From Clostridiales bacterium (GTDB lineage: Bacteria; Bacillota; Limnochordia; Darwinibacteriales; B1SED10-159), in NCBI GenBank assembly GCA_003551965.1, contig PUOC01000206.1:1-53499 (forward strand): 53,499 bases of DNA, written 5' to 3'. Of the stretch, positions 23,498 to 50,072 are shown piece after piece. The notes below the pieces were generated by a model. That model was not told where the DNA came from and did not search any database. It saw only the letters and a program-made list of their open reading frames with translations. Both the position numbers and the translations under genes were made by a program. Each line of letters opens with the position of its first letter. Position 1 is the first letter of the stretch.

Positions 23498-23521
23498 ATG
23501 GGAAATAACTGCATCATACAC

Positions 23522-23788
23522 GAAAGGCCATGACGGAGAGGAGTAGGTATAGTCATCCTCTTAGCGAGCTAGAAGACGGTGAAAGTCTAGCAGGAAGCTA
23601 TGCTGAACGCAGCTCCCGAGCTTCGTCTCCAACGGCTCAGCCCCCGGGCTGCTTAGTAGAGAACGACGTTTCCTTACGTTACAAAGGCACAGTATGTCTG
23701 TACTGGTTGAGGTGAGCTTTTTTAAGCTAACAAGGGTGGTACCGCGGAGTAAACTCCTCCGTCCCTTTTTGGGACAGAGGAGTTTTTT
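23522..23788 (+). ncRNA. T-box riboswitch, probable alanine specificity (specifier GCA)
   Basis: Stem I with GA motif, AGTA/GAA S-turn, AGCGA box and GGTGAAAG loop. T-box AAGGGTGGTACCGCGG at 23732-23747. Terminator AAACTCCTCCGTCCC/GGGACAGAGGAGTTT plus T tract. Specifier loop GAACGCAG closed by GGAG/CTCC. Confidence 0.93.
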
Positions 23789-43526: not shown

Positions 43527-44585
43527 ATGGTTATTGTCATGAAACCCGGTGCACCGCAAAGTGAAATGGAAAAACTGAGTAAGAAGTTCGAATCCATGGG
43601 TCTGTCGGTCCATCCAACCATTGGAGAAAACTACTCCATTCTAGGTCTTGTGGGAGACACCCAGCTTCTCACAGAAAGCGAAGTGGCGGCCAGCAGCAGC
43701 TATATCGATCGCATCATCCGCGTGCAGCACCCCTTTAAACTGGCCAGCAGACTGTTCCATCCAGAGGACTCCGTGATTGACGTGGAGGGCGTTAAGATAG
43801 GTGGCGGGAATCTCACGTTTATCGCCGGCCCCTGCGCGGTCGAAAGCCGCGACCAAGTCTTTGCCATTGCCGAGCAGGTAAAAGCGTCGGGAGCACACAT
43901 GCTGCGGGGCGGTGCCTACAAACCGAGAACGTCCCCTTACAGCTTCCAAGGTCTGCAGGAAGAAGGACTGCAGATCCTCAAAGAAGCCAAGGAAAAAACC
44001 GGCATGCCCATCGTTACGGAAATTATCACCCCCGATTTGGTGGAGCTCGTGGCTGATTACGTCGACGTTCTCCAGGTAGGGGCGCGCAACATGCAAAATT
44101 TTTCGCTGCTGCGCACCGTCGGCCAGACAAATAAGCCCATTCTACTCAAACGGGGCATGTCTGCAACCATTGAAGAGCTGATCATGGCGGCCGAGTACAT
44201 CATGTCGGAGGGCAACCCCAACGTCATCCTCTGCGAACGGGGCATTCGCACCTTCGAGACCTATACAAGAAATACACTGGACATCAGCGCTATACCCGCC
44301 ATCAAGGAGCTGTGTCACCTGCCAGTCATTGTGGATCCAAGCCACGCCGCCGGACGCTGGCATATGGTGGAACCGTTGGCCAAGGCTGCCATTGCCGCCG
44401 GAGCCGACGGTCTGATCGTGGAAGTGCACCACAAACCCGATGAAGCGCTGTCCGACGGAGCACAAAGCCTAAAGCCAGAAAAGTTCAACCGCCTGATCTC
44501 TGCCGTCCGTCAGATCGCAGCCATTGATGAGGATGTGCATCACCGGCATGTACCAGCCCAGGTGCGGGACAACGGGCTGCGTTGA
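43527..44585 (+). CDS. aroF: 3-deoxy-D-arabino-heptulosonate 7-phosphate (DAHP) synthase, type I-beta with N-terminal ACT-like domain
   Basis: [53 protein letters not shown] and SDGAQSL motifs. Confidence 0.95.
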
Positions 44586-44599
44586 GAGGAGAGAACGCT

Positions 44600-45448
44600 T
44601 TGGAACAGCATTGGCATAGCATAATCAGTCAGCAGTGGATCGCCGACAACCTAGACAGCGACACATTGATACTGGCAGACTGCCGCTTTTCTCTGGCCGA
44701 CAGCGGTGAAGGGCGCAGGCTTTACCAAGAGGGCCATCTGCCCGGAGCCTATCACTTCGACCTAGAACAAGACCTTTCGGGCCCTCTGCAGGCCCATGGG
44801 GGCAGACATCCCCTGCCGGATCCGGAATTGCTGGCGGGAAAACTTCGCCAAGTAGGCATTGATGAACAATGCCTCGTTGTCGCCTATGATGACCAGCTCG
44901 GTGCCGGAGCGGCGCGGTTTTGGTGGCTGCTGCGGTATCTGGGGCATGGCAACGTCGGCGTCATGGACGGAAGCTTTGATCTGTGGGTACGGCAGGGATA
45001 TCCTGTCAGCACGGATATTCCCCATTCCAAGCCTGCACCCTTCGCCGCCCATGTCCAGCCGTATCGAAAGGCAGAGGTTGACGATGTTCGGAAGCAGGTA
45101 CCGAACGGCAAAGCAATCTTGGTGGATGCCCGGGAAGCTACTCGATTTCAGGGAATCGAAGAGCCGATTGATCCCAAAGCCGGACACATCCCCGGCGCCG
45201 TAAATGTGTTTTGGAAAGACAATGTGGACAGCCAAGGACGCTGGCACTTCCATGCCGTGAAAGATATGGCACGGCATCTGTCTCCTGATCAGGAGATCAT
45301 TGTATACTGTGGATCAGGCGTGACAGCCTGCCCCGTCATTCTTGGGTTCGAAGAACTGGGTTTCACCCATGTCCGGCTCTATGCAGGCAGCTGGAGCGAT
45401 TGGATCTCCTATCCGGACAACCCGGCCGCCGGCCTCGGGCAGACATAG
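44600..45448 (+). CDS. Tandem-domain rhodanese / 3-mercaptopyruvate sulfurtransferase
   Basis: GHLPGA, GGRHPLP, AARFWW, VDAR...RF.G..EP.D..AGHIPGA, YCGSGVTAC and LYAGSWSDW motifs. TTG start at 44600 (RBS GAGGAG) or at 44582. Confidence 0.9.
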   Translation: MEQHWHSIISQQWIADNLDSDTLILADCRFSLADSGEGRRLYQEGHLPGAYHFDLEQDLSGPLQAHGGRHPLPDPELLAGKLRQVGIDEQCLVVAYDDQLGAGAARFWWLLRYLGHGNVGVMDGSFDLWVRQGYPVSTDIPHSKPAPFAAHVQPYRKAEVDDVRKQVPNGKAILVDAREATRFQGIEEPIDPKAGHIPGAVNVFWKDNVDSQGRWHFHAVKDMARHLSPDQEIIVYCGSGVTACPVILGFEELGFTHVRLYAGSWSDWISYPDNPAAGLGQT

Positions 45449-45469: not shown

Positions 45470-46054
45470 TCACGGCCGTGTCAGTGCCAGTTCGTCAAAA
45501 TGGCAGCGAAAACTGCTCGTCTGCGGACTGCAGGCATAGACGCCCACATAGACATCGGCATCTGCTGCCGGCAGGTGGGTAATACGCATCTGCCGGTATG
45601 TCTGCCCATCTTCGGAGTGATATAGGAAGAAATCTCGGCGCTGGCGGACCACGCGGTACCAAAGCGCAGAGATGTCCGACGCCGTATCGGTGGTAGCCCA
45701 ATCGGAGTAGCCGTGATTGGTCACCACCGAGCCAAGGCGGCCCAGAGAGGCATCTTCGTACTCTAAAGACTGCTTGATCCAATTCTCCCCATCGATCCGG
45801 ACCATCAGGCCGCACTGATCAAATTGGCCGGCGTAGCGAAAACGAACCCGGGCGGAAAAACAGAAGTCTTCTTTGACACTGCGCAGCAGGGCGTGGCCGT
45901 TGTCGCGCTGGAATCCATAGTGGGTGCGCTGCCAGAAATCGGTAGCGGGTTCTGTGGTAATCGTCAAGCCGCTTTCTCCTGTTCTGTAAACCGTTGGTTC
46001 GCAGAACCAAAAAAACGGCCGGGGAATTCCGTTGTCAAAAACATAGCTGGTCAC
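45470..46054 (-). CDS. DUF1349 (ConA-like) domain protein
   Basis: TDFWQRTHYGFQRDNGH, FDQCGL, WIK.S.EY, GSVVTN.GYSDW and GVYACSP motifs. Confidence 0.8.
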   Translation of the reverse strand: MTSYVFDNGIPRPFFWFCEPTVYRTGESGLTITTEPATDFWQRTHYGFQRDNGHALLRSVKEDFCFSARVRFRYAGQFDQCGLMVRIDGENWIKQSLEYEDASLGRLGSVVTNHGYSDWATTDTASDISALWYRVVRQRRDFFLYHSEDGQTYRQMRITHLPAADADVYVGVYACSPQTSSFRCHFDELALTRP

Positions 46055-46220
46055 GAGCGGTTTCCTCCCATAGGCGACGCCGCAGACAGCTGCCGATATG
46101 TAATGGGGCGCCGATTCACCACCCCGAGAATCCAGGATGCTGCATCGGCGCCGGGCACCTGCAAGGCAGTCCGAGTTTCAAACACATCTTCGGCACTGGC
46201 CATGAGCCAGCGTCAGCGTG

Positions 46221-46733
46221 TTAACGTACAGTCAAGACAAGGCTGCTTCCCTCTTCAATGCCCTTGTCGGCCAGCGCGCCGGATTTGGCAATCAGGATAT
46301 ACTGATAGCGGTCGTCTGGACGATAGCCATCGGTGGAACCGCTAGAGACGTTAAACACCTGCAGCAGTTCACCTTCTCTGTCGAAGAAGGCCATGTCCAC
46401 ATCGGTTCTCAGGTTCTCGAAACTGCGGGCGGCTGTGGCCTCGAAGGGAAAGACAAGATAAAGAAAGAGATCTTCCATGGCTTCCGCAGGCAAGCCCCGA
46501 AATGCGGCTGTGCGGCCGTCGGGGGTGGCTGCGTGGCGAACATCGATCTGCACTTCATCGCCATCGGCGGTTTCCAGCGTCACTACCATTTCGGGAAGTT
46601 CCATAACAGCCCGCACGGCCGGGTCACCGCGGCCTACGGTCATGAACAATACAATGGCCACAACAACGACAACGGCAACACCCACAATGATTACCTTTGG
46701 AGACAAGCCTTTTTTTGCTTCTGCACTCATCAA
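46221..46733 (-). CDS. Membrane-anchored DUF192-like protein
   Basis: N-terminal TM helix, then A.TP..R....GL, L.LVFP, F.NL...VDMAFFD.EG and Y.L.A.SG patterns resembling DUF192. RBS GAGGAGG. Confidence 0.55.
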   Translation of the reverse strand: MMSAEAKKGLSPKVIIVGVAVVVVVAIVLFMTVGRGDPAVRAVMELPEMVVTLETADGDEVQIDVRHAATPDGRTAAFRGLPAEAMEDLFLYLVFPFEATAARSFENLRTDVDMAFFDREGELLQVFNVSSGSTDGYRPDDRYQYILIAKSGALADKGIEEGSSLVLTVR

Positions 46734-46818
46734 ATATCCTCCTCTTTTCCACTCTTATTCGCAATGCATGATCGCCGGTGCCAGGCACAAGCGGCGCTTT
46801 CCTCCCTGGTGCACCCCT

Positions 46819-48381
46819 TCATCTGCCTTCGGTTGCAGCGGCCAACTTCTCCCATTCTCTGCGGTTTAACTGTATCCCTAAGCACGAGAGCAATTTGCGC
46901 TGGCCTACACTGCAATCACCCAACTGGCAGCGAAGTGAACCTCCGTATCGGAACCAACCCAACGTAAAACGAGACAGCTCATCCCATATTTCCATATATG
47001 ATTCCAAAGGGTCTGGACACGAGGTAAAGAGCCGCCTCAGTCGAACCTCTGCCTCCCCACTGACAAACAGTGCCAGCGAACACAGGACCCCATATCCCCT
47101 AACTACGCACTGCAGGTCCGTGTCGTGTGCCAAGGAAGCCTTGTCAAAGCAGACTGACCGAAAATGACGGTCGATCAAGCGTGTTACAGCTGCACATTCC
47201 CAGCAGTCCTGCAGGGACGCTGCGGGCTTCGGGCCCTGCCCGTCGAATCCATCACATGGACAACCCTCCCTTCTGGTGTAGGAGAACTTTCCGTCTCCTA
47301 CTTGCACGGAAAACCAAGGCTCAGCACACCAGCGGTTGTTCCATTCCGCCAACCGGCGCCGAATTGCTTCGGTACCTTCCAGACGACCATCGCTCACCTG
47401 AGCGCCGAGTTCCGCCAACCCCTGCTCAGCTTCTCTCAAACGCCTTTCTGCAGCGGTGTACGGGCCGCTTCGGACACTGCCATCGCCATCGGGTACATGG
47501 CAGCACACTTCTCCTTCTGTCTTCACGGCTGCCCCGCCGCGGGGAGCGTCCGGAAGGTGATCCACAGGGTGGGCTTGGCCTCTGGGGAAATCACCGCCGC
47601 CGGCAGAGCTTGGATCCCGGGCGGACCTTCCGACGGCAGCCGCCGCATGCGCTGTTCCGTCGCCAAGCACAAGCATACTGGGCAGATCAAACTGGCTCAC
47701 ATAGCTGGCTAAGGACGGCTCCAGTTCTTCAGCGGACCCGGAGAAGACACGCACCGAGCGAGGGCGGTGGCTATCGTCCGTAGCCAGGGCCACCACAAGT
47801 TTTCCTCCCCCCCCTTGAGGGACCACTTGATGCAGGTATAGAGTTCGTGCACGGTTGCGATTTCGGTGGTGGTCGTAGAGCGCATTGTCTATATTTTCTT
47901 TCTTTGCGCCTAACTCCTTCAGAGCACCATACCAGAACTCCAACCGGGGTGCCACCGAACGTCCCAGCAGAACGGGCCAAGCCGTTTGATTCCATCTGCG
48001 TACCAGCTTGTCGAAAACCATCGGATTGCTGTGGCAGACCAAATTCCAGATCATGACCGCCACCATATCCTGTTGAGCAGCCGTCAAACATTCGAGACTG
48101 GAGGTTACGCCAAGCTTTTTCATAAGACGCATAACGGCCATGCAGTCGCCGAAATTGGCTGAAAATTGGTACTTCATGGAGCCCACGTCGAATTTTGGCG
48201 GATCGCCATACTGCAGAGCCTCCTCCAAGGCTGCAATGGCATGGGCAGGCAAATCGGAAAGATTGAGAACGGTCTTGTTCCGCGGAACACCGCTCTCATC
48301 GCGGTACGATGTAACTAACAGGGGAGTCACATATACCTTATCCTTGTACCGCCGCTTAGCATAACTTACTCGCAGTTTCAT
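46819..48381 (-). mobile_element. IS1634-family transposase-derived protein, intact ORF with degenerate catalytic core
   Basis: The N-terminus Y...LLVTSYRD.SG.PRNKTVLNLS.LP is typical of IS1634 transposases. Recognisable remnants: LVVALATD..RP..VRVF.G, LGDG, IDRHFR and VRGY..LCSLA. No terminal inverted repeats seen. Confidence 0.7.
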
Positions 48382-48398
48382 AGCTACATTATACCACA
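48382..48398 (-). promoter_or_regulatory. Extended -10 promoter giving a probable leaderless mRNA for the transposase-derived ORF
   Basis: TGTGG-TATAAT-GTAGCT-ATG on the minus strand: 6 nt between the -10 and ATG, and no SD. Confidence 0.65.
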
Positions 48399-48738
48399 GA
48401 TCCCGAAAAAATACCCATGTTTTTAACTTTTCACTCGCGACTTTTTAAACCGATTCCGGTGCAGACAAGGGGAGCGCTGCTGCACCAGAAAAGCATGGAT
48501 GCAATGACCTCTAAGAGAACAGCTCCGTGGCGGACCATTTGTGGAGCAGCCCGACCAGTCCCGGTTTGACATCGCAAGGGAAAAACGCATGCCTGCCGTT
48601 TGCATGAACCTTTTCCCGCGAAAACGGCTGAGCCGCTGTGGGAGAGAACGCTTGGAAATGGCGCCTACCCCTCGCGCTCCAGCCGCCGGCCGGAAGAAGG
48701 AAGCAGAGAGGCCGAACACCACTCAGCGCCAGGCGATG

Positions 48739-49170
48739 TCACTCCTCACCGCTGCTGTCGATCCAGACGTCGAAGAAACTGAGATCCGTTCGCTGGCTCC
48801 AGTGAAGTGCTTTCCAGAAATCTTTGGCCCGTTCATTGTCCCCATAGGTCACTAGGGAAGCTTTTCGAATGCCTTCTTCTGCCAGGCTGTCCAAGGCGGC
48901 CTGGACTAACGCACGCCCTACTCCTTCGCGGCGGTGCGCTTCATCGACACAGGCATGGTAGATATGGCCGCGCCGGCCATCGTGGCCACACAGGATGGCT
49001 CCCACCAATTTCTTGTCTACCAAGGCCACGAAGCACGAGCGAGGATTCCGCCGCAAAAACCGGGCCACTCCTTGTCTGGAGTCGTCCTCGCGGCGCATGC
49101 CTACACCCGGAGTTTTCTGCCACAGTGCAACCACTGCATCATAATCGCTTAGGTCCATCAATCGGATCAT
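48739..49170 (-). CDS. GNAT-family N-acetyltransferase
   Basis: IR.M...DY.AV.ALW, FL.RNP, GHDGRRG.IYH and RREGVG.ALV motifs. ATG at 49170 with RBS GGGAGG. Confidence 0.88.
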   Translation of the reverse strand: MIRLMDLSDYDAVVALWQKTPGVGMRREDDSRQGVARFLRRNPRSCFVALVDKKLVGAILCGHDGRRGHIYHACVDEAHRREGVGRALVQAALDSLAEEGIRKASLVTYGDNERAKDFWKALHWSQRTDLSFFDVWIDSSGEE

Positions 49171-49385
49171 GGGCTGTGTCCTCCCTTCCACATGGTCACA
49201 GGGACAGCGGCAGGCCATCGACTGCATCGCGTTGTCTTCTGATTCGACGCCCGCCCTCCCGCTCCTGCCCCTTGGCCATGCTGCCCCCGTATCGTTACAT
49301 GAGTAAGAAAAACCAACGCCCGTAGGAATTATTCTCCGAACAGCGAACCAGGACATATGGCTGAATTTTGAGGAGGAACCAATCC

Positions 49386-50072
49386 ATGACTGCCCATGTC
49401 TACGATCAGTTTTCTGTTAATATCGACCGAGGAAAGCTTTTTGAGCAGCTTCACGTCGTCGCCGGCAGCGATGATGCCGGTGTGCTTGATGAAATGTGCA
49501 GAGAGGCTGAACAGATAGGCCGCCCTAAGGTAATGGCTCGAACGTCCTACATCGAAGAAAAGGGCACAGACTTCGTGGTGGTCGACGGAATCCGCTTGTC
49601 AAGCCGGGTCCTGCGGGTGAACGTGGACCGGGCCTACAAACTCGTTCCTTACGTGGCCACCTGCGGCTTAGAGCTCGAACAGTGGTCAAAGGGGTATACG
49701 GATTTCCTGGAGCAGTATTGGGCTGACGCGGTCAAGCAGTGGATGATGCGTCAAGCTGTCAACGCGTTTCGCAGTACGCTTGGGGACGAGTTTGGCCTCA
49801 CACAGACAGCCACCATGAACCCCGGCTCCTTGGAAGATTGGCCTATTTCCGAACAACAGCATCTCTTTAAGCTGTTAGGTGACCCGGAATCCGCCATTGG
49901 CGTTACGTTAACGGATAGTTTCTTGATGATTCCATCCAAATCCGTCTCCGGAATCTGTTTCCCCACGGAAGTTAACTATTCCAACTGCCAGCTTTGTCCC
50001 CGGGAGGAATGCCCTGGGCGCATAGCCCCCTACGACCATGAACTCTACGAAACAAAATACACATTGCCATAG
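49386..50072 (+). CDS. Stand-alone cobalamin methionine synthase activation-domain-like protein
   Basis: YVATCG.ELE, MNPGSLEDWPISEQ..LF.LL, IGV.LT.S.LM.P.KSVSG and C-terminal CQLCPREECPGR. RBS GAGGAGG. Confidence 0.75.
   Translation: MTAHVYDQFSVNIDRGKLFEQLHVVAGSDDAGVLDEMCREAEQIGRPKVMARTSYIEEKGTDFVVVDGIRLSSRVLRVNVDRAYKLVPYVATCGLELEQWSKGYTDFLEQYWADAVKQWMMRQAVNAFRSTLGDEFGLTQTATMNPGSLEDWPISEQQHLFKLLGDPESAIGVTLTDSFLMIPSKSVSGICFPTEVNYSNCQLCPREECPGRIAPYDHELYETKYTLP

Follow-up and report, generated by a model that had tools for sequence, protein, structure and literature searches.

A 520-codon open reading frame (ORF) at 46819..48381 on the minus strand of a 53,499-nucleotide stretch of DNA from a Clostridiales bacterium (the window, meaning the whole stretch that was analysed and whose numbering is used throughout) encodes a full-length derivative of an IS1634-family transposase from which the catalytic centre has been lost. 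As a preliminary description made from the sequence alone had said, the ORF is unbroken, beginning with ATG and having no stops inside. Because the frame remained unbroken and the first 60 residues strictly conserved despite the loss of the DNA-cutting centre, the results suggest that the host has retained the ORF for a new use; the interpretation that we favour, with modest confidence, is exaptation of a catalytically dead transposase, with purifying selection acting on its N-terminal module. The segments of the ORF are as follows.

46819..48381 (−): 520-amino-acid (aa) ORF, ATG start, 0 internal stops; full-length catalytically dead derivative of an IS1634-family transposase
48202..48381 (−): residues 1-60 (N1), a basic, β-rich module and the best-conserved part of the ORF
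47839..48201 (−): residues 61-181 (N2), a helical module, aligned with the beginning of the Tn5 transposase structure
47806..47838 (−): residues 182-192, what is left of the first catalytic motif, with Q185 at D1; the GYNRD loop after it is lost through an in-frame deletion of 19 residues
47659..47805 (−): residues 193-241, recognisable RNase-H-like core island ending in G240-D241
47455..47658 (−): residues 242-309, G/A/P-rich, predicted disordered, matched by the family profile in no frame
47266..47454 (−): residues 310-372, conserved helical and β island, 36.7 bits to the family profile
47107..47265 (−): residues 373-425, remnant of the Glu motif (I403-D404-RHFR; Y397 replaced by A), without a profile match
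46846..47106 (−): residues 426-512, C-terminal helical region, 26.1 bits to the family profile
46888-46902 (−): Q494-RKLL-498 in the C-terminal region, aligned with the family pattern Q-x-x-[ILV]-L

The catalytic motif columns were scored against 33 relatives, which carry LYDITSSYFEG...GYNRDGKKGKKQ, FVGDRGM and Y...VEQxFRxxK. The preliminary description had read the first catalytic Asp motif, 'LYLYDITSSYFEG' in the family, as eroded and the loop after it as missing, and the alignment bore out both points: the stretch is L181-YLHQVVPQGGGG-193 in the ORF, the D1 column (D in 31/33 relatives) is occupied by Q185, and a 19-residue gap takes out the GYNRD(G/K)KKGKK loop. D2 was retained as D241, within the sequence G240-D241-G-T-A to which GDRGM had been said to have changed, with G at position 242 (R in 29/33 relatives) and T at position 243 (G in 31/33). 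The reported change of VE.AFR to IDRHFR was likewise found, I403-D404-RHFR standing in place of VEQxFR, so that D404 occupies the catalytic Glu column (E in 31/33); the Tyr column at 397, invariant in the relatives (33/33), contains A. The low-complexity stretch described earlier corresponds to residues 242-309, which contain 12 G, 11 A and 7 P among 68 residues, and AlphaFold predicted residues 242-308 to be disordered (confidence score, pLDDT, <50). The ORF does not contain a complete DDE triad with its flanking motifs.

Similarity to IS1634 transposases was found along the whole of the ORF. A word-indexed search of 5.8 billion proteins gave six matches: P0001, which is 520 aa long and 98% identical to the ORF, and P0002-P0006, which are PF01609-bearing proteins of 557-606 aa with 28-50% identity. 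In phmmer comparisons P0002 matched the ORF at E 1e-69, and an exhaustive phmmer search of 1.84 billion representatives gave 107 matches at E ≤1e-3 and 32 at E ≤1e-10. When five relatives were compared by tblastn with 46000-49500, each aligned along its whole length and only in frame −1; for P0002 the alignment covered residues 1-557 in a single frame (E 4e-83). Identity of the ORF to intact IS1634-family transposases was 32-35% over the full length in one frame. Nine full-length intact relatives scored 282-321 bits with NF033559 and are ordinary IS1634-family transposases; the ORF, with 18 bits (E 1.1e-3) over residues 45-175 only, fell below the curated cut-off of 100 bits. No Pfam domain, DDE_Tnp_1 included, matched the ORF at E up to 1, and from library scans alone it would be labelled 'hypothetical'. 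A family hidden Markov model (HMM) built from 33 relatives matched it at E 1.4e-69, and its Atlas features pointed to IS1634 transposases (0.96). On the strength of these alignments we regard the ORF as a homologue, by common descent, of IS1634 transposases over its full length. Relatives were present at 19 loci from species-representative genomes, among which the subfamily occurs in at least five phyla; intact members of the subfamily, recognised by 'MKLRV(S/A)YAKRRYKDKVY', were found at loci L027-L031 in metagenome-assembled genomes of Hydrogenedentota, Verrucomicrobia, Planctomycetota and Latescibacterota.

An AlphaFold model of the ORF made with a 34-sequence alignment had a mean pLDDT of 75.8. 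As assayed by VIA-align, this model, which leans on the family alignment, was closest to Tn5 transposase (1mm8_A; Z 10.6, root-mean-square deviation 4.2, 242 aligned residues), with Tn5 residues 5-467 paired with ORF residues 79-489; the next matches had Z values of 7.7, 7.2 and 7.1. Foldseek with the whole model gave no match at E up to 0.001. For the N-terminal 180 residues the best VIA matches were ORC/Cdc6 winged-helix domains over residues 89-161, with Z of 4.3-5.0, and for residues 1-63 Z was at most 4.3, values that are below the meaningful level.

Open frame and domain-specific divergence

The earlier proposal that the frame is under selection was supported by its single-frame homology, its domain-specific divergence, neutral simulations and the restriction of variant indels to non-coding DNA. 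When the family HMM was run unfiltered against all six frames of 46701-48500, it matched the ORF frame only, in four collinear pieces (residues 1-181, 151.8 bits; 193-241, 3.9 bits; 310-372, 36.7 bits; 426-512, 26.1 bits), and the best score in the other five frames was −5.3 bits. Since the matches were confined to the ORF frame, the divergent stretches are not out-of-frame readings, and compensating frameshifts were rejected as the source of the core divergence on the basis of this result and of the tblastn alignments of the five relatives, which used only frame −1. In the core the net change amounts to 46 alignment columns deleted and 6 inserted, all of them in frame. In neutral simulations of the 286-codon core of a relative (61% GC, 300 runs, indels ignored), the frame was still open in 2.7%, 0.7% and 0.3% of runs at 70%, 55% and 42% amino-acid identity to the start, respectively, and the mean number of stops was 3.8-7.0. 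Among population variants compared over 6 kb in 4 of the 11 public runs listed, the sole indels were single-nucleotide deletions at 48469 and 48489, which lie in non-coding DNA between the left-end relic and the sub-terminal box described below; there were none in the 1563-bp ORF. These results support the conclusion that the open frame exceeds chance.

Divergence was distributed very unevenly along the protein. Residues 1-60 were 68-80% identical to five intact relatives (mean among relatives 67%), in agreement with the earlier statement that about the first 60 aa form a normal IS1634 N-terminal domain; identity was 22-38% for residues 61-180 (38% among relatives), 23-28% for residues 181-440 (60%), and 25-37% for residues 441-520 (40%). 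Terminal branch lengths were re-estimated per partition on a fixed topology of 14 sequences (LG+G4), with the terminal branches of P0002, P0003 and P0004 for comparison. The ORF branch was 0.10 substitutions per site for residues 1-60 (0.12-0.33 in the three relatives), 1.11 for residues 61-181 (0.44-0.65; family median 0.96), 1.88 for the recognisable core islands (0.18-0.36), 8.1, which is saturated, for the three catalytic segments (0.10-0.44), and 1.44 for residues 426-520 (0.27-0.49). Thus the core, which is the slowest part of active elements, is the fastest part of the ORF, and the first 60 residues have not moved. We take this contrast within one gene, 0.1 against at least 8 substitutions per site, to mark the part that is still used.

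The preliminary description had also called for per-domain ratios of non-synonymous to synonymous divergence (dN/dS). For residues 1-60 dN was 0.18-0.33, with synonymous sites saturated against all five relatives for which DNA was available, so that amino-acid conservation was confirmed there; elsewhere the ratio was uninformative because dS was saturated. Base composition followed the same division. The N-terminus keeps a coding signature, with GC contents at the three codon positions (GC1/2/3) of 0.56/0.39/0.59 compared to 0.63/0.42/0.64 in long ORFs of the host; in the unmatched catalytic segments GC2 has reached 0.60, equal to GC3 (0.61), compared to a GC2 of 0.36-0.38 in the cores of relatives. 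Domain-specific constraint holds independently of the frame being open. Taken together, the branch lengths, the frame, the simulation, and the low dN with saturated dS indicate, though indirectly, that at least one domain has been under purifying selection after the loss of mobility.

Close variants of the ORF gave a similar picture. P0001 differs from the ORF at 11 residues, all within 205-460 and none in 1-204. A variant from salt-lake run X2, close to P0001, had 14 differences listed in codons 252-520, 9 non-synonymous and 5 synonymous; the ratio of non-synonymous to synonymous among the differences listed was 7:1 in codons 252-425 and 2:4 in codons 426-520, and in the neighbouring DUF192 gene there were 1 non-synonymous and 6 synonymous. 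The core therefore looks neutral and the N- and C-termini look constrained, these contrasts resting on 6 to 14 sites. A further protein, P0011, is a later start call with 1 difference and shares a protein cluster with P0001. The 90%-identity cluster of P0001 also holds three unrelated 40-aa hydrophobic peptides (P0008-P0010), which looks like a clustering artefact. Only one locus, L015, came out of a metagenome scan; it spans residues 396-520 and has one difference, which is non-synonymous. The ORF stretch was present, whole or in part, in 11 listed public runs, which are soda-lake, salt-lake and alkaline-sediment metagenomes, and pieces 98-100% identical to it were found in all four runs compared (X1-X4).

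Element ends, promoter and mobility

The features outside the ORF that bear on its origin and expression are as follows.

48388..48396 (−): −10 promoter element TGgTATAAT, 6 nt from its end to the ATG
48428..48442 (−): degenerate copy, AGTCGCGAGTGAAAA, of the family sub-terminal box TTGTCGCTAGTAAATA
48523..48529 (−): left inverted repeat remnant CACGGAG, compared to the family AACGGAAGTTRAGTAA; approximate left boundary of the former insertion sequence (IS)
46734..46818 (−): 85-nt spacer from the ORF to the DUF192 gene, with the DUF192 ribosome-binding site GAGGAGG at 46744-46738
46221..46733 (−): DUF192-family gene, downstream, same strand as the ORF
48739..49356 (−): GNAT acetyltransferase gene, upstream, same strand as the ORF

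Copy number had been named as a check on whether the ORF belongs to an ordinary IS. The ORF DNA, tested as a 2.1-kb stretch, was present once in the 3.87-Mb genome, unlike ordinary multi-copy ISs, in an assembly that is a draft of 329 contigs in which repeats can be missing. The genome also has four intact IS1634 transposase genes that score above the family cut-off (on contigs C82, C251, C98 and C23) and belong to other subfamilies; by blastp and tblastn they had no significant similarity to the ORF (best E 0.03). An origin of the ORF from the IS1634 copies of its own genome was rejected because the ORFs of L002-L007 matched it no better than E 0.03 by blastp or tblastn. With P0004 as query, the only matches in the genome were the ORF locus and the catalytic cores of distant IS1634 copies, and neither a cognate IS copy nor the family inverted-repeat motif was found elsewhere in the genome (1 motif match versus 5 in the control). 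The earlier suggestion of a dominant-negative inhibitor of active IS1634 copies thus has no target in the assembly, in which no cognate transposase or inverted repeat was found.

IS1634 insertion sequences are described as having terminal inverted repeats, a 5-6 bp AT-rich target duplication and a length of 1.5-2.0 kb (De Palmenaer et al. 2008, PMC2266710). Two loci of intact relatives have clear terminal inverted repeats with AACGGAAGTTRAGTAA, of 28 nt at 82% identity (L029) and 17 nt at 94% (L031). We aligned the 220 nt before the transposase start of eight relatives (among L026-L034) with window positions 48382-48530. The inverted-repeat motif was present in 7/8 relatives, starting roughly 150-160 nt before the ATG, and the 16-nt box TTGTCGCTAGTAAATA was present in 7/8, just upstream of a TTGACA −35; all eight had a TTGACA-like −35 and a TATAAT-like −10 that ended 6-7 nt before the ATG, without a Shine-Dalgarno sequence. 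This geometry implies, as we read it, that the transposase mRNA of the family is leaderless, and the box of the subfamily may serve as an operator or as an internal site to which transposase binds. The conserved architecture of leaderless promoter and sub-terminal box is thereby defined for one subfamily of IS1634, a family whose regulation is poorly characterised.

In the window the −10 and the start codon were retained: a perfect TATAAT at 48393-48388, with TG upstream at 48396-48395, is followed by gtagct and then the ATG. The preliminary description had proposed a strong promoter; the perfect −10 with its TG upheld this in part, but a good −35 was lacking and the promoter escaped the consensus scan. 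The same description had seen no IS ends, which proved correct for the right end, none being recognisable; at the left, alignment with the eight relatives revealed a degenerate end, CACGGAG (48529-48523), compared to 'AACGGAAGTT' in the family, and the internal box was also kept as a degenerate copy. No flanking inverted repeat was found around the ORF, and the family inverted-repeat motif was absent around it at ≤3 mismatches, the 7-nt left remnant being seen only through the alignment; in the window the motif had two distant matches at 3 mismatches, a number equalled in 7 of 100 shuffles. In the three relatives with complete 3′ ends the right repeat ended 56-60 nt after the stop codon, and nothing like it was found in the 85-nt spacer. 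The distance from the left remnant to the right end inferred in this way is about 1.77 kb, within the IS1634 size range. Because it is single-copy, its ends are eroded and the spacer contains no right repeat, the element is immobile.

The DUF192-like gene, which had been placed only about 85 nt downstream, indeed starts 85 nt past the ORF, and it is probably co-transcribed with it. No terminator-like or promoter-like site was found between the two genes by consensus scan, which is an insensitive scan that also missed the −10 of the ORF. A regulon of box-like sites was considered and rejected: the pattern TGTCGCKAGTRAAWA, with ≤2 mismatches, had 19 matches in the genome versus 31 for the reversed control, and hence no enrichment.

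Proposed function, rival explanations and known systems

We propose that an IS1634 insertion of the 'MKLRV...' subfamily landed between the GNAT gene and the DUF192 gene and then lost its mobility, its ends eroding and a single copy remaining. Catalysis would have been lost as D1 was deleted or replaced and the Glu motif destroyed. Decay to a pseudogene would not have followed; instead a full-length protein would persist, probably expressed, with purifying selection on the N-terminal module that is strict for residues 1-60 and extends to most of residues 61-181, while the three catalytic segments drifted to randomness without the frame ever being broken. In Tn5-type transposases the N-terminal domain binds the element ends and the C-terminal domain multimerises. 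Because homology to Tn5 would provide the same two activities, we propose that the ORF product works as a DNA-binding protein that is unable to cut and keeps some C-terminal interaction. It might repress its own leaderless promoter through the adjacent sub-terminal box, or it might occupy the ends of incoming cognate IS copies; a likely role for it is thus one in DNA binding, whether to regulate its own gene or to attach to IS ends. The protein would on this interpretation be expressed, bind a DNA target and benefit the host. IS1634 transposases are described as having a C-terminal motif, with Gln at position 1 and positions 4 and 5 hydrophobic, by which they bind the β sliding clamp (PMC4549789). 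In the aligned Q-x-x-[ILV]-L columns Q is present in 23/33 relatives, and L or F in 32/33 at the last position; Q494-R-K-L-L498 of the ORF may therefore be a putative sliding-clamp-binding motif.

A more specific form of this proposal, which we hold only tentatively, is that the nuclease-dead protein, through its conserved N-terminal module, still recognises the end or box DNA of the family and so either represses or provides immunity when the cognate IS, which is widely transferred, invades again, and that its translation also carries transcription into DUF192. If so, there would be two layers of selection on the frame.

Several observations weigh against exaptation with selection on the N-terminal module. 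The ORF was flagged for being open, and out of many IS relics some can be expected to be open by chance. A function confined to the N-terminus leaves about 340 further open codons unexplained, and the amino-acid changes of the core have a neutral appearance; by our own arithmetic the 11 differences of P0001 would all fall in 256 of 520 residues with a probability of about 4e-4, but the counts are small. The confidence of the AlphaFold model rests on the family alignment. No DNA target of the protein was found in the genome, and the box motif was not enriched. P0001, P0011, L015 and X1-X4 are all 98-100% identical and represent one species-level population sampled in several places and years. 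Among 60 related genomes an orthologue was found in 0/2 of the same family and 0/38 of the same order; retention has been shown within this one species-level population, not across species. Within the 6 kb, contigs of metatranscriptome run X7 covered 47223-47811, 46251-46413 and parts of 49409-49992 and nothing else; these contigs carry no strand, end or level information and come from an RNA library that may contain DNA. The preliminary description had looked to syntenic orthologues between the GNAT and DUF192 genes of relatives, and none was found in the 60 genomes searched. In the same class 2/20 genomes gave matches, which were ordinary transposase homologues at 27-31% identity. The two same-family genomes have GNAT (54-55% identity) and DUF192 (31-34%) homologues that are not syntenic and lie on separate contigs, and in G001-G003 no empty site could be defined through synteny, as the two homologues are on different contigs and too divergent.

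The main rival explanation, which we consider rather unlikely as a full account, holds that the frame is open only so that transcription from the IS promoter or the GNAT promoter reaches DUF192, the protein having no function of its own. The IS would have landed an estimated 25-30 nt before the DUF192 start and severed DUF192 from its own promoter, so that stops in the ORF would bring Rho-dependent polarity over 1.6 kb; stops and frameshifts would be purged and the protein sequence left free of selection. The layout of the locus agrees with this, the ORF and DUF192 being on the same strand, 85 nt apart, with no terminator- or promoter-like site between them (although the scan was insensitive and missed the −10 of the ORF itself), and with the −10 promoter conserved; a right end 56-60 nt after the stop, as in 3/3 relatives, would by the inferred geometry leave about 25-30 nt of host DNA that includes the ribosome-binding site. 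The catalytic segments, moreover, behave as any sequence without stops would, with GC2 about equal to GC3, the 7:1 ratio of non-synonymous to synonymous differences, and saturated divergence. Selection for translation alone accounts well for a core that is randomised yet open. It fails to account for the conserved N-terminus, where residues 1-60 have a branch of 0.10 and a dN of 0.18-0.33 with dS saturated, nor the near-normal rate of residues 61-181, the missing amino-acid polymorphism in residues 1-204, or the C-terminal ratio of 2:4. It may act together with selection on protein function, and the locus permits the two, selection on the protein and selection on translation through downstream polarity, to be separated, a distinction seldom made for open mobile-element relics.

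It is unlikely, in our estimation, that the ORF is an ordinary decaying IS relic that is open by luck because stops are rarer in its GC-rich core, perhaps as a mosaic whose 5′ part was refreshed by a later active copy. Of the neutral runs 0.3-2.7% did stay open, and we estimate that 132 random codons at about 64% GC are free of stops about 3% of the time; the ORF was picked for being open and is confined to one species-level lineage, the core polymorphism looks neutral, and the ends are eroded, all as expected of a relic. However, the net 46 deleted and 6 inserted core columns are all in frame, the family signal appears in no alternative frame, and the variant indels lie only in the non-coding remnant. 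A uniformly decaying relic, moreover, cannot pair an N1 branch of 0.10 with a saturated branch of at least 8 in the catalytic segments. That the 5′ part was replaced recently is disfavoured because a fresh copy should also have brought a fresh left inverted repeat (IRL), box and −35, all of which are eroded beside the conserved coding sequence. Close to refuted is a still active transposase with an unconventional centre made up of D241, D404 and another acidic residue. The retained D241, the Asp at the Glu position and the overall Tn5-like predicted fold would fit such an enzyme; yet both the D1 strand motif and the GYNRD loop have been deleted from the ORF, which has also lost Y397, R242 and G243, is predicted to be disordered over residues 242-308 and scores 18 bits against the 100-bit cut-off of NF033559, and the element is single-copy with eroded ends and no cognate inverted repeat elsewhere in the genome.

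The exapted transposase that we favour can be compared with several known systems. The intact members of its own IS1634 subfamily (P0002-P0006) resemble the ORF in collinear homology, in the −10/leaderless geometry, in the position of the box and in the C-terminal Q-x-x-h-L, h being hydrophobic; they keep D1, GYNRD, GDRGM, Y...VE..FR..K and clear inverted repeats, all of which the ORF has lost, and the ORF is single-copy and 37-40 residues shorter than the 557-560-aa relatives P0002 and P0004-P0006. The best structural match is to the Tn5 (IS50) transposase; the inhibitor protein of Tn5, Inh, and the ORF product are both catalytically incompetent, derive from a transposase gene, and could interfere with end binding or multimerisation or take its place. 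Inh is an N-terminally truncated product of active Tn5 and acts on the co-resident active transposase. In contrast, the conserved part of the ORF is its N-terminus, its core was destroyed by mutation, and no active cognate copy was found in the assembly. IS1 InsA and IS911 OrfA consist of an end-binding N-terminal module without catalysis and repress the element promoter or compete for ends; they are short products of active multi-copy elements, whereas the ORF spans 520 aa, reading through a gene that is dead, immobile and single-copy.

Transposase domestication has been well documented among eukaryotes, and is documented in bacteria for the HUH (RAYT) and TnpB (TldR, Cas12) types. TldR proteins are described as nuclease-dead, TnpB-derived DNA-binding repressors (PMC10705468), and RAYT/TnpA-REP as domesticated bacterial transposon proteins (PMC3333891). 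Both are, like the ORF, transposon-encoded, immobilised, single-copy and kept by the host, and TldR has also lost its nuclease residues. They differ in class, being RuvC-type RNA-guided TnpB and HUH Y1 rather than the DDE IS4/IS1634 type, and they occur in many species with demonstrated functions, whereas the ORF is found in one species-level lineage and has a candidate function. ALP1/ALP2 are described as eukaryotic domesticated DDE transposases with lost catalytic residues (PMC7282668); like the ORF they are diverged DDE-type proteins kept at full length after the loss of catalysis, but they are eukaryotic, have known partner complexes and are deeply conserved. A catalytically dead DDE IS transposase kept as a bacterial host protein did not turn up in a narrow full-text literature search, which is no proof of absence. 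The case is compact and experimentally tractable, yet consists of one lineage and of metagenome-derived sequences.

Neighbouring genes and other features

In four relatives the alignment of GNAT homologues begins no earlier than residue 64 of the 205 aa listed for the GNAT ORF; translation of this ORF probably starts close to the MIRLMDL methionine (codon 63), and the distance to the divergent gene at 49368 would then be longer. This divergent gene, a 234-aa ORF at 49368-50072 (+), matches only the C-terminal part of the methionine synthase activation domain (PF02965; positions 211-254 of 273, E 2.9e-7) and appears to encode a protein that stands alone and resembles a fragment. Among the eight DUF192 homologue matches in related genomes, three contain one in-frame TAG (G003:C443:2104-2601, G002:C359:1058-1555 and G003:C30:2855-3319).

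The four intact IS1634 genes of the genome lie at C82:56-1621, C98:280-1773, C23:254-1708 and C251:11112-12599, in three cases no more than about 300 nt from the start of a contig, and a fragment with an in-frame TAG lies at C305:34837-35211; ISs are probably behind many of the breaks in the assembly. In the rhodanese-like gene at 44582-45448 there were 12 differences from L015, of which 6 were non-synonymous, and all six fell in codons 231-288 (45273-45443, +), so that its C-terminal tail appears to evolve much faster than the remainder. A T-box leader was found at 23521-23769 (+), with a full-length match to the RF00230 model at 123.8 bits.

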